DNA of 37,543 nucleotides, from positions 1 to 37,543 of the forward strand of contig JANOEP010000073.1 in the NCBI GenBank assembly GCA_031441465.1, in the 5' to 3' direction. A model generated the notes under the pieces. It saw nothing but the letters and a program-made list of their open reading frames with translations. It did not search any database and was not told the DNA's origin. This DNA is from a bacterium. GTDB lineage: Bacteria > Krumholzibacteriota > Krumholzibacteriia > LZORAL124-64-63. This document shows, piece after piece, positions 20,777 to 22,543 of the stretch (position 1 is its first letter; each line of letters opens with the position of its first letter). A program made the position numbers and the translations under genes.

Positions 20777-21163
20777 ATGAAGAAGATCTACGTGGGTAAC
20801 CTGCCGTTCTCCGCGACCGAGGACCAGGTGACCAAGCTGTTCGAGCAGCATGGCGCCGTGCACTCGGTGGCACTGATCACCGATCGTGAGACCGGCCGGC
20901 CCCGCGGCTTCGGTTTCGTGGAGATGGACGACAGCGCGGCCATGGCCGCGATTTCGGCCCTCGACGGTCACAGCATGGACGGCCGTAACCTGAGCGTCAA
21001 CGAGGCCCAGGACCGTCCGAAGCGCACCGGCGGCGGCGGCGGCGGCTTCGGTGGCGGCGGCGGCGGCGGTCGCAGTGGCGGCGGCGGCGGCGGCGGCTAC
21101 GGCGGTGGCAGTGGCGGCGGCGGTGGCCGCAGCGGCGGCGATCGCGGCGGCCGCGGCTGGTAA
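20777..21163 (+). CDS. RRM RNA-binding protein with Gly-rich tail
   Basis: RNP2 IYVGNL, RNP1 RGFGFVEM, GGC-repeat Gly/Arg tail. Confidence 0.95.
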   Translation: MKKIYVGNLPFSATEDQVTKLFEQHGAVHSVALITDRETGRPRGFGFVEMDDSAAMAAISALDGHSMDGRNLSVNEAQDRPKRTGGGGGGFGGGGGGGRSGGGGGGGYGGGSGGGGGRSGGDRGGRGW

Positions 21164-21191: not shown

Positions 21192-21228
21192 GGACCCCGC
21201 TCCTGTTTTCAGGGGCGGGGTTCTTTAA
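21192..21228 (+). terminator. Rho-independent terminator after the RRM gene
   Basis: GACCCCGCTCCTG-TTTT-CAGGGGCGGGGTT followed by CTTT. Confidence 0.7.
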
Positions 21229-21286
21229 GTTAGACCAGCCCGGCACATTTTCGACGGCACGAATCTCGTTGTGAAGACCCTGCCGC

Positions 21287-21322
21287 AAAGCAGAGGCGCC
21301 GCCGCTTGCGCGACGGCGCCCC
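21287..21322 (-). terminator. Terminator of the candidate sRNA
   Basis: Minus strand GGGGCGCCGTCGC-GCAA-GCGGCGGCGCCTC then TGCTTT (GNRA tetraloop). Confidence 0.6.
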
Positions 21323-21550
21323 GTATGGATCAGCTTCGGTGGCGCTGGGTTCCCCCGCTCGGGGCTAGCCAGCGAACCACGTCCGGGAGTGTCCCCTCAA
21401 CGCAGGGGCGCCACCTCCGCCGAGCCGCATCTTTCAGAACTCACTGGATCACCTCCTATTCGGGCGAACCATCGTCGGCGAGTCCCATCTCGCCCGGCTC
21501 CCCCAGCCGCCCTGGCCTCGGGAACCGCCGCTTCGATGCGCGGATGTCAT
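21287..21550 (-). ncRNA. Candidate ~260-nt structured sRNA / small-ORF transcript
   Basis: Bracketed by a sigma70 promoter and a terminator, with internal long hairpins. Contains AGGAGGTGATCCAG followed by a 15-aa ORF (21444-21397). Confidence 0.5.
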
Positions 21551-21556
21551 GGCTTG

Positions 21557-21585
21557 ATTCTACGGGATCTCTCTCTTGTCGGCAA
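21557..21585 (-). promoter_or_regulatory. Sigma70 promoter of the candidate sRNA
   Basis: TTGCCG (21585-21580), 17 nt, TAGAAT (21562-21557). Confidence 0.6.
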
Positions 21586-21676: not shown

Positions 21677-22543
21677 ATGGTGACCGACCAACTGATCCGC
21701 CTCGCCGCCGCCTGCCTGCACCGTGGGGAAGAACCGCCGCTGGGGGGCGGGCGTCCGGTCGGCAACCTGTTCTTCGCCGGCTGCAACCTGCGCTGCGGCT
21801 TCTGCCAAAACCACCAGATCAGCCACCACCCCGAGGCGGGCGCGCCGATCACGCCGGCGGAGTGCGCGGAGCGGATGCTGCAACTGGCCGCGGCCGGCGC
21901 CGGCGCGATCGGGCTGGTCACGCCCACGCACCAAGGCGCCGCGGTGGCCCGCGCCGTGGAATCGGCGCGACTGCAGGGGCTCGACCTGCCGGTGATCTAC
22001 AATTCCAACGGCACCGACGGGCCGACCGTGCTGGCGCGTTTCGACGGCTTGGTCGATGTGTACCTGCCGGACTTCAAGTACGGCTCCGACGCCATCGCCC
22101 AGGACCTGTCGCGGGTGAGCGGTTACGTCACGCGGGCGCACCGCGCCGTGACGATCATGCACGCGCAGGTCGGCCACTTGCCCGACGACCAGGCCGAGGG
22201 GGAGGCGCGTCGCGGGCTGATCGTGCGCCATCTGGTCCTGCCCGGGGGTCTGGCCGGCACCGCGCGCGTCGCGCGGGAACTCGTCGGCGCCGTCGGCGAC
22301 GGCCTGTGGCTCTCGCTGATGGCGCAGTACCACCCCGCCGCGTTGGCGCACACCGACGCCGGCCGCGCCCTGGCCCGTCTCCACCCCGAATTGACGCGAT
22401 CGATCGCGACCGCCGAATACGAACAGGCCCTGCAGGATGTCGAAGACGCGGGCCTGTACCGGCTGTTCACCCAGGATCCCGGCTCAGCCCCCGCCGAGGG
22501 CCGGCCCGACTTCGACCGCCCCGACCCCTTCCGCTGGAGTTAG
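21677..22543 (+). CDS. Radical SAM protein, PflX-like (putative PFL-activating-enzyme family)
   Basis: HRGEEPP, FFAGCNLRCGFCQNHQIS (CxxxCxxC), VTPTH, YNSNG, DVYLPDFKY, GLIVRHLVLPG, MAQYHP. Confidence 0.88.
   Translation: MVTDQLIRLAAACLHRGEEPPLGGGRPVGNLFFAGCNLRCGFCQNHQISHHPEAGAPITPAECAERMLQLAAAGAGAIGLVTPTHQGAAVARAVESARLQGLDLPVIYNSNGTDGPTVLARFDGLVDVYLPDFKYGSDAIAQDLSRVSGYVTRAHRAVTIMHAQVGHLPDDQAEGEARRGLIVRHLVLPGGLAGTARVARELVGAVGDGLWLSLMAQYHPAALAHTDAGRALARLHPELTRSIATAEYEQALQDVEDAGLYRLFTQDPGSAPAEGRPDFDRPDPFRWS

Follow-up and report, generated by a model that had tools for sequence, protein, structure and literature searches.

The 37,543-nt stretch of Krumholzibacteriota DNA analyzed here (contig JANOEP010000073.1; hereafter the window) contains a 513-bp intergenic gap between two plus-strand genes, and within this gap lies an RNA unit on the minus strand. 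The upstream-coordinate neighbor encodes an RRM-domain protein (20777-21163) and the other neighbor a radical-SAM protein (21677-22543), both assigned by Pfam. The original prediction had proposed an unannotated small RNA or small-peptide gene at this place, read from a promoter TTGCCG-17-TAGAAT and closed by a terminator with a GCAA loop; all the features it named were recovered at the coordinates given. The promoter is found at 21585-21557 (-), and a promoter scan of 1.6 kb returned two such sites where 0.1 were expected from shuffles; the start of the RNA, near 21550, follows from the usual spacing to the -10 hexamer. By eye, TTGnnn-17-TAnnnT stands at a similar place in most, though not all, alignment rows from other genera. 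A terminator scan located a stem at 21315-21297 (-) followed by the tail CCTCTGCTTT, which in the minimum-free-energy (MFE) fold grows to 13 bp and is capped by a GCAA loop, and in relatives all five pairs of the terminator helix show changes on both sides. Just past the terminator of the RNA, at 21275-21247 (-), TTCACA-17-GAAAAT makes up another promoter-like site, aimed into the end of the RRM gene. The features of the unit, all on the minus strand, are given below in the order in which they would be transcribed (SD, Shine-Dalgarno sequence; ORF, open reading frame).

21580..21585 (-): -35-like hexamer TTGCCG, from a promoter consensus scan
21557..21562 (-): -10-like hexamer TAGAAT, from the same scan; RNA start predicted near 21550
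21286..21550 (-): predicted stand-alone transcript of ~264 nt; covariance-model match 21545-21286
21528..21542 (-): hairpin P1 (CCGC...GCGG), whose arms co-vary between genera, by eye
21495..21527 (-): helix P2, outer part 21527-21521/21501-21495, inner part 21517-21515/21507-21505; loop xGGGC conserved
21477..21494 (-): hairpin P3, GGGCGAG-loop-CTCGCC (helix 3), near-invariant
21462..21466 (-): CGCCC, candidate SD-masking arm (helix 4), a potential partner of the SD core 21455-21450
21444..21457 (-): extended SD AGGAGGTGATCCAG, a 14-nt perfect complement of the 16S 3' tail
21397..21444 (-): small ORF, GTG plus 14 codons plus TGA (MSSERCGSAEVAPLR), its frame kept in 33 of 33 distinct sequences
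21419..21423 (-): 5' arm of helix 5, TCGGC, pairing with GCTGA 21334-21330
21411..21418 (-): second SD-like sequence GGAGGTGG, inside the ORF at codons 9-12, near-invariant; its GGTGGCGC part belongs to the 5' arm of helix 6
21408..21415 (-): 5' arm of helix 6, GGTGGCGC, pairing with GCGCCACC 21345-21338
21393..21407 (-): CCC-loop-GGG hairpin holding the ORF's stop in or beside its loop; 88.7% paired, no covariation
21353..21364 (-): hairpin CCCC-GAGC-GGGG, then conserved GAACCCA; two helices, 95.5% and 81% paired
21330..21345 (-): strongly conserved block GCGCCACCGAAGCTGA, forming the 3' arms of helices 6 and 5
21286..21322 (-): intrinsic terminator with GC-rich stem, GCAA loop and tail CUCUGCUUUG, from the scan and the MFE fold

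A conserved, structured RNA gene

By DNA search the stretch was recovered from 29 of 41 related genomes, and a covariance model (R1) built from an alignment of 22 sequences, which gives the window's own copy 246.9 bits, matched 81 of 151 genomes sampled from the phylum (this genome counted in both cases). This extent of conservation excludes chance. R1 matched once per genome, the exception being one genome (G059) with a weak second match. Matches were found in families f1 (44/60), f4 (14/17), f5 (8/10), f6 (7/9), f8 (4/9) and f2 (3/5), and none in f3 (0/33), f7 (0/6) and f9 (0/1); f3 and f7 thus have no R1 match while sister families mostly carry the RNA. Among the matches listed, the labeled records within the RNA family were two from Candidatus Krumholzibacteriia, two from Fibrobacteraceae and one from Acidobacteria.

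The consensus fold was obtained from 22 of the 24 collected copies (L005 and L006, near-duplicates of L004, were omitted) and comprises 43 pairs, in which 95.3% of cells are standard-paired compared to a shuffled mean of 91.0, and 21 pairs show compensatory changes on both sides compared to a shuffled mean of 8.9. None of 500 shuffles reached any of five fold measures. Since kinship among the sequences inflates the shuffle test, the stronger evidence comes from a slid control, in which moving the partners by 1-3 columns lowered pairing to 37-55%, and from the compensatory changes within individual helices. The 5' domain of ~95 nt consists of the hairpin P1, the two-step helix P2 and the hairpin P3. 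The arms of P1 change between genera (CGCAC/GTGCG, CACAC/GTGTG, CGCGA/TCGCG), a covariation judged by eye because the alignment is ragged there. P2 (helices 1 and 2) is 91.6% and 96.9% paired, with both-side changes in 8 of 10 pairs, and P3 (helix 3), which the original prediction had already recognized as a GGCGAG..CTCGCC hairpin, is 98.5% paired with both-side changes in two pairs. Further downstream, the long-range helices 5 and 6 are 95.5% and 99.4% paired and show both-side changes in 3 of 5 and 3 of 8 pairs, respectively. A long GTGG-CGCTGG..CCAGCG-CCAC stem, also proposed originally, is present in the sequence but is only 75% paired in the 22 relatives (CGCTGG/CCAGCG ~68%), and it was rejected as part of the conserved fold because GCGCCAC pairs with GGTGGCGC in helix 6 instead.

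Helix 4, formed by CGCCC and the SD core, is 96.4% paired, and its variation is confined to one side because the SD itself scarcely varies. Masking of the SD by this candidate helix is compatible with the data. In the predicted ensembles, averaged over 49 copies with duplicates kept, the four to five bases upstream of GGAGGTG have a mean unpaired probability of 0.5-0.9.

We also looked for the element in RNA libraries. Between 6 and 16% of sampled words of the 2-kb stretch around it are contained in 24 public runs, 20 of which are recorded as RNA. Three of the four metatranscriptome runs compared yielded contigs of 90-95% identity over the element: one 1239-nt contig in X1 that covers the element and, on either side, the RRM and radical-SAM genes, and contigs of 183 nt (21310-21491, X3) and 203 nt (21322-21522, X4) that lie inside the predicted transcript; X2 gave no cover over the element. 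As assembled contigs from relatives they carry no strand, end or level information, and they provide a weak hint that the relatives' copies are present in RNA.

An element flanked by two plus-strand genes, and joined to both of them in the 1239-nt RNA contig, might be no gene of its own but the cis leader or 3' untranslated region of a neighbor, a plus-strand RNA into which the 16S tail has been copied, or a motif that arose by chance. However, the RRM and radical-SAM neighbors recur within the genus only. Around 24 loci of other genera, 27 of the 46 largest flanking ORFs match Pfam, all in unrelated families (nitroreductase, DUF2891, cytochromes, ABC-2, amylase, ECF sigma factor and others); these ORFs are the longest stop-to-stop frames of high-GC sequence, 19 of the 46 have no Pfam match and many are perhaps not genes. 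Furthermore, the largest ORFs downstream of the RNA are of mixed orientation and the terminator directly ends the RNA. Since its neighbors are not conserved outside the genus, the RNA is neither the leader nor the 3' untranslated region of one gene, and a cis-acting leader or riboswitch could be ruled out for want of a conserved same-strand neighbor. The promoter and terminator motifs lie on the minus strand, and the minus-strand fold (21550-21287; -137.4 kcal/mol, z -2.60) is stronger than that of the plus strand (-114.4 kcal/mol, z -0.87), which together with many G-U pairs fixes the minus strand as the RNA strand. A plus-strand 16S fragment or tail mimic was rejected on the same grounds: the similarity to 16S stops at the 14-mer, the plus strand folds less stably, and it is on the minus strand alone that the G-U pairs can form. 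With presence in 81 genomes excluding coincidence, we consider it extremely improbable that the element is not an independent gene. Altogether, the element is a single-copy, conserved structured RNA gene of ~260 nt with a covarying fold, and probably a stand-alone one.

As for the convergent neighbor, the RRM gene and the RNA gene stand side by side within the genus only. The RRM protein has a long Gly-rich tail, and its gene has a strong terminator of its own at 21192-21223 (+), with a 14-bp stem and TTCTTTAAG.

The 16S complement and the small reading frame

The 16S gene of this genome ends ...GCGGCTGGATCACCTCCTTTCT, so that AGGAGGTGATCCAG is the exact Watson-Crick complement of its tail, as had been supposed from the typical 16S sequence, and the base next to the 14-mer adds a G-U pair. 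The duplex of AGGAGGTGATCCAG with the tail has a predicted energy of -29.6 kcal/mol compared to -8.7 for GGAGG alone. AGGAGGTGATCCAG occurs once in the window and not at all in 100 shuffles and, rRNA-gene antisense aside, it is the longest tail complement in the 3.49-Mb genome, where the next-longest one holding the AGGAGG core measures 12 nt. The latter, GAAAGGAGGTGA on contig C22 (13176-13187, -), lies within a weak match (13.1 bits; C22:13136-13195) to the Rfam family CC2171, which is considered below.

We next compared 33 distinct sequences of the element, drawn from 54 loci (one further locus is broken by a contig end). The uninterrupted complement is 14 nt long in 16 of them, 15 nt in 12, 16 nt in one and 17 nt in one, and shorter in three (13 nt in one, 11 nt in two); with G-U pairs allowed, it spans 14-19 nt throughout, all lengths assuming that the relatives share the 16S tail of this genome. 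Three point changes fall inside the 14-mer (C->T in L172, A->G in L177 and in L178). All three are transitions that leave a G-U pair with the tail and all lie outside helix 4; as there are only three events and transitions are common, they are a hint and not a proof. Most simply, these sequences suggest that the SD pairs with something fixed, for which the 16S tail is the simplest partner.

A different target for the conserved purines could be CsrA, for which the RNA would act as a sponge through AGGAGG and GGAGG, ~36 nt apart, or a set of small RNAs with CU-rich seeds. A CsrA dimer can bridge suitably spaced GGA sites, the two conserved GGA motifs of the RNA stand at such a spacing, the genome encodes a CsrA homolog (81.5 bits), and known sponges such as CsrB and RsmY are likewise structured small RNAs with conserved GGA motifs. 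Those sponges, however, carry many GGA motifs, whereas only two are invariant here and both are predicted to be paired and not in loops. In addition, a GGA in a loop suffices for CsrA, and the conserved sequence exceeds what CsrA recognizes: the conservation of GUGAUCCAG, the G-U-keeping changes and the retention of 14 bases complementary to 16S would all go unexplained. A sponge function, which the original prediction had listed, is therefore highly improbable.

The complement runs directly into a reading frame. The GTG at 21444-21442 starts with the last G of the 14-mer (CCA-GTG, 21446-21442) and the TGA stop lies at 21399-21397, which bears out the GTG-initiated 15-residue ORF MSSERCGSAEVAPLR described earlier, as well as the second GGAGGTG inside it, at 21418-21411. 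The last base of the complement is the G of the start codon in 29 of the 33 sequences, the exceptions being L014, L019, L177 and L178. Start codons are GTG in 31 and TTG in two, at a distance from GGAGG of 7 nt in 31 and 9-10 nt in two, and the ORF has 14 codons in 10 sequences and 15 in 23. In a differently filtered set the stops are TGA (21), TAG (8) and TAA (4), and the stop-bearing loops differ in sequence among relatives while each holds an in-frame stop. The sole length difference noticed within the ORF is of 3 nt (L019), and L177 has extra bases ahead of its start, where a TTG start brings the frame back; one start change, GTG->TTG, still gives a start codon. The peptide consensus is M-S-S-D-R-x-G-S/L-V/A-E-V-A/V-S-L/P-R. 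Its third residue is Ser in 22 of 30 distinct ORFs, encoded by TCN as well as by AGY codons, and its fourth is D/E, the codon varying chiefly at its third base. The TTG swap, the 3-nt length change and codons 3 and 4 are hints, read from the alignment, of selection on the frame. The frame is not separate from the fold: residues 7-13 of the peptide coincide with helix arms, codons 8-13 being the 5' arms of the two long-range helices. A second coding possibility raised at the outset, a leaderless 33-residue ORF from the predicted RNA start, is present in this sequence but was rejected, since only 16 of 31 distinct relatives have an ATG ORF of at least 28 codons in the 5' region and its start positions vary.

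These observations bear on two further explanations. The first is that the RNA is purely non-coding and binds the 16S tail or the 30S subunit as a decoy, a hibernation aid or a protector of the tail (on free 30S or on 16S precursors), the ORF being a by-product. The 8-10 helices are far more structure than a simple mRNA has, and as most of the ORF lies in conserved helices its conservation may be driven by the RNA. Against this, a start with a frame of 14-15 codons is kept in all 33 sequences with three kinds of stop in differing loops, the start has changed from GTG to TTG, a shifted TTG rescues the frame in one copy, and a decoy has no need of a start codon at the exact SD spacing. We regard this explanation as unlikely, though it deserves to be kept in mind. 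The second is that the element is an ordinary gene for a functional peptide of 14-15 residues, with the fold and the SD serving stability or expression only. The reading frame is indeed kept, a peptide consensus is visible, and both the use of two Ser codon families at codon 3 and the third-base variation at the D/E codon fit it. However, the invariant E-V-A/V coincides with the arm of helix 6, and the 95-nt 5' domain and the conserved 3' block would be superfluous. Work on a related kind of RNA, set out in the following section, adds to the case against a peptide gene: translation is expected to suffer from an SD as long as 14-17 nt, and the peptides RreB and RreR are unstructured and gave no phenotype (PMC5711450). 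A plain peptide gene is thus improbable. The same work lends the non-coding explanation a further point, as rreB itself is scarcely translated (PMC5711450).

Likeness to the rre small mRNAs and proposed mode of action

The closest known kind of RNA is the rre small mRNAs of Alphaproteobacteria, abundant small transcripts that grip the 30S subunit via an SD longer than translation needs; statements about them here follow the available sections of Hahn et al. 2017 (PMC5711450). There, rreB is a 165-nt RNA whose 17-nt complement to the 16S tail has the G of GTG as its last base. It has a 14-codon ORF, adjoins tRNA-Gly and co-sediments with 30S subunits. Both the long SD and the GTG make its translation weak. 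The start codon also reduces the half-life of rreB, and replacement of that codon stabilizes the RNA (PMC5711450).

The Krumholzibacteria RNA shares this architecture in several respects. Like rreB and rreR it would be a small RNA transcribed independently, from a promoter of its own to a terminator of its own; what bears on this here are motifs for both, a covarying terminator helix, unconserved neighbors and, on the RNA side, unstranded contigs only. Like them it has a long perfect 16S complement whose last base is the G of the GTG start, a tiny ORF conserved within its clade (14 and 18 codons there, 14-15 here), an SD predicted to lie mostly within a hairpin, and a genomic context that is not kept between families. 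The Dinoroseobacter copy L132, whose 18-codon ORF we presume to be rreR, likewise has a second GGAGGT-like motif toward the end of that ORF. In contrast, the rre RNAs are alphaproteobacterial while the present lineage is labeled Krumholzibacteriia; the complement is 16-17 nt there and 14-17 nt here (14 in this genome); rreB is 165 nt long and the present RNA ~260 nt; a covarying three-hairpin domain of 95 nt upstream of the SD is found here only; and the ORF here is embedded in two long-range helices. The peptides are unrelated (MSSDRxGSVEVASLR here compared to MSFIKRCHLAGIAR in Bradyrhizobium and MSREVLERGVGTDLEVSS in Dinoroseobacter, presumed rreB and rreR), and by eye no relatedness of peptide or RNA to RreB and RreR was found, the first residues at most being in common.

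Rfam models place the element in no established family. No match at gathering scores was found in the whole window, and at E-values up to 10 there were only sub-threshold matches: BjrC68 (22.6 bits, to the terminator only), CC2171, and sucA-II on the plus strand. CC2171 (RF01867) scores 20.6 bits (E 0.034) against a cut-off of 75, yet it is the best full-length Rfam match at the element, and the element is the best CC2171 match in the genome. The CC2171 consensus begins ...GAAAGGAGGUGAUCCAGUG and ends in a terminator, as the element does, and alphaproteobacterial loci above its cut-off share the layout of SD, GTG and small ORF (MSHC...); the match, however, covers little beyond the 16-mer, a GGGnAACCC stretch and the terminator, and the internal structure differs. 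With the architecture of rre RNAs, yet a complement of 14 nt, no sequence relatedness and other taxa, the element is rre-like and not a member of the rreB, rreR or CC2171 families. The original prediction, which could match the element to no known family, was thus right as to Rfam families at their cut-offs, while a closest known kind does exist; and two of its three readings, a ribosome-binding RNA and a small-peptide gene, together describe an rre small mRNA, with analogy as their support.

The STAB-SD of the Bacillus thuringiensis cry3A mRNA offers a more distant comparison. It is a super-SD and, like the present RNA, has a long 16S-tail complement that would hold a 30S subunit and not promote normal protein expression. 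STAB-SD differs in having no start codon and sitting in an mRNA leader, whereas the present RNA keeps a start and a short frame and is a chromosomal stand-alone gene.

We propose, with a probability of roughly 0.6, that the structured ~260-nt stand-alone RNA works like the alphaproteobacterial rre small mRNAs with an extended SD. The joint retention of SD, start and a frame of 14-15 codons in all 33 distinct sequences speaks for it. By analogy, the Krumholzibacteria RNA would bind 30S subunits and be translated; we infer its transcription, and any role of its peptide, as well.

Several observations weigh against this proposal. The complement is short for it, 14 nt here and 14-15 nt in most relatives: rreB cut to 14 nt is mostly not ribosome-bound, which the authors attribute to loss of a single-stranded seed, and rreB binds Escherichia coli ribosomes, where 14 nt match, only weakly (PMC5711450); in the present RNA the 14 nt stand in another context. 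The bases of GGAGGTG have mean predicted unpaired probabilities of 0.13-0.63 in the averaging described above, and the SD core is predicted to be largely paired. The structured 95-nt 5' domain is absent from rreB and is not accounted for by an rre-like model. As for the frame, codon 6 is near-free and there is no overall excess of entropy at third positions; in the alignment, conservation of the peptide is inseparable from constraints on the RNA, although the reading frame itself is conserved. The RNA contigs are unstranded, at a depth of 5-7, with the neighbors at similar depth in X1 and X3. Seventy of the 151 sampled genomes, including all 33 of f3 and all six of f7, have no R1 match. Moreover, over-production of rreB caused no growth phenotype and its function is called "elusive" (PMC5711450), so the rre kind has no known function.

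If the proposal holds, the following course of events can be envisaged. The RNA would be transcribed from its own promoter and ended by its own terminator, and its center, AGGAGGUGAUCCAG, would form 14-17 bp with the free 16S 3' tail, roughly threefold the pairing of an ordinary SD. This pairing would dock the 30S subunit with GUG in the P site, the G of GUG being the last paired base, while the CGCCC upstream may keep the SD core covered as long as the RNA stays closed. Since codons 8-13 form the 5' arms of both long-range helices, an initiating ribosome would have to unwind these helices, and it would stop after 14-15 codons in or beside a hairpin loop. As in rreB, the over-long SD and the GUG might keep translation weak, so that the ribosome is held and turnover of the RNA is coupled to it.

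The kind itself has thus been published, although it is obscure; what is new is the lineage, the fold and a wider distribution. In the available sections of Hahn et al. 2017, rre RNAs are reported from Alphaproteobacteria only, with ORFs of 14 and 18 codons in rreB and rreR, and CC2171, Rfam, Planctomycetes and Acidobacteria are not named (PMC5711450). We found no literature extending the class beyond Alphaproteobacteria, and the three citing papers found come from the same laboratory, in a search that left out subscription journals. To experimenters the new family offers a covariation-supported fold, a candidate SD-masking helix, an ORF within helices and a stop at a hairpin loop, and its natural SD variants, all of which appear to keep 16S pairing, form an experimental resource.

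The same 16-mer in other lineages

When AGGAGGTGATCCAGTG was sought in one genome per species, at least 120 loci were returned, which were sorted into classes by their peptides and labels; the types below are those among the matches listed. The Rhodobacterales type has 18-codon ORFs (MSR.VLERGVGT...) and is taken, by length and clade, as the published rreR. The Bradyrhizobium type has 14 codons (MS.[IFLS]KRCHLAGIAR); two of its loci, L129 and L140, each adjoin a tRNA as reported for rreB, and we take this type as rreB. A further alphaproteobacterial type encodes peptides of 21-27 codons beginning MSHC, and the three such loci tested reach the CC2171 cut-off (L142, 120.2 bits; L084, 88.5; L036, 76.7). 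CC2171 is a Caulobacter small RNA whose expression was seen by Northern blot in Methylorubrum (bioRxiv 10.1101/2022.01.24.477521, as far as its available text goes). These sequences suggest that CC2171 is the form which rre small mRNAs take in Caulobacterales/Rhizobiales; the features on which this link is based are a 17-nt complement, the GTG, the 21-27-codon MSHC ORF and a conserved ...W(I/T)LAS.EV.. end. No literature linking CC2171 to rre was found, subscription journals again lying outside the search.

Outside the Alphaproteobacteria, the units among the matches listed numbered five in the Krumholzibacteria family, five in Acidobacteriota, nine in Planctomycetota, two in Gemmatimonadales and two in Burkholderiales/Bordetella. 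The Acidobacteriota units (L035, L055, L077, L144, L148 and L180-L187) are RNAs of ~110 nt with a six-codon ORF, MRY.LR (MRYGLR, MRYSLR, MRYWLR), whose terminator stem sets GAGGAGG opposite CCTCTCTCC; in the class of the Acidobacteriota carrier, the exact 16-mer occurs in 7 of 101 genomes at eight places, all of them the same RNA. The Planctomycetota units (L051, L056, L059, L079, L083, L088, L090, L100, L106 and L188-L197) bear the labels Phycisphaerae, Pirellulales and Planctomycetaceae, and several of their ORFs share D-C-x-K-G-L-R/H; in the class of the Phycisphaerales carrier the exact 16-mer occurs in 10 of 101 genomes at ten places, with ORFs of 9-22 codons. A reversed-pattern control gave no matches in either class search. 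The Gemmatimonadales loci (L039, L060) and those labeled Burkholderiales/Bordetella (L082, L097) carry the same 16-mer, one pair with conserved 14-codon ORFs (MSSDPRKARIAGSW / MSHDHTKARIAGSR) and the other with 24-26 codons (MRD.QG...). No Rfam gathering score was reached by the two Acidobacteriota, the four Planctomycetota or the Gemmatimonadales and Burkholderiales loci scanned, and CC2171 alone among the sampled 16-mer small-ORF families has an Rfam model.

The 16S tail is nearly universal, so that maximal complements of it look identical and a shared 16-mer is no evidence of common descent. For a 16-mer heading unrelated small-ORF RNAs in several phyla, 16S would be the only common partner visible in the sequences, and the arrangement of 16-mer and small ORF suggests a polyphyletic class. 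A distinct counterpart across much of an uncultured phylum, with unrelated ones in other phyla, suggests that the arrangement arose several times; several independent origins would mean that it is selected for something general about ribosomes, more than being a quirk of one lineage. We tentatively raise a wider possibility, which we would not expect to hold in full: unrelated small RNAs in at least six lineages (Alphaproteobacteria, Krumholzibacteriota, Acidobacteriota, Planctomycetota, Gemmatimonadota and Burkholderiales) may have converged on the 16-mer AGGAGGUGAUCCAGUG, the maximal complement of the universal tail plus GUG, followed by an ORF of 6-27 codons, and may share a ribosome-directed job, with the Krumholzibacteria 5' domain as a sensor that gates the SD. 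Were this so, the job could be, for instance, to sense how many 30S subunits are free or to buffer their pool, and gating of the SD by the CGCCC/GGAGGUG helix would make the RNA a trans-acting, switchable 30S trap.

A few other 16-mer loci among the matches listed are ordinary coding starts. In 19 more (e.g., L034, L038, L053, L069) the 16-mer lies inside a conserved coding sequence, ...PDIDVDFE..R.EEVIQW..., which we take to be that of an error-prone DnaE2-type polymerase; this DnaE2-like occurrence is a coding coincidence that motif scans for super-SDs must filter out.

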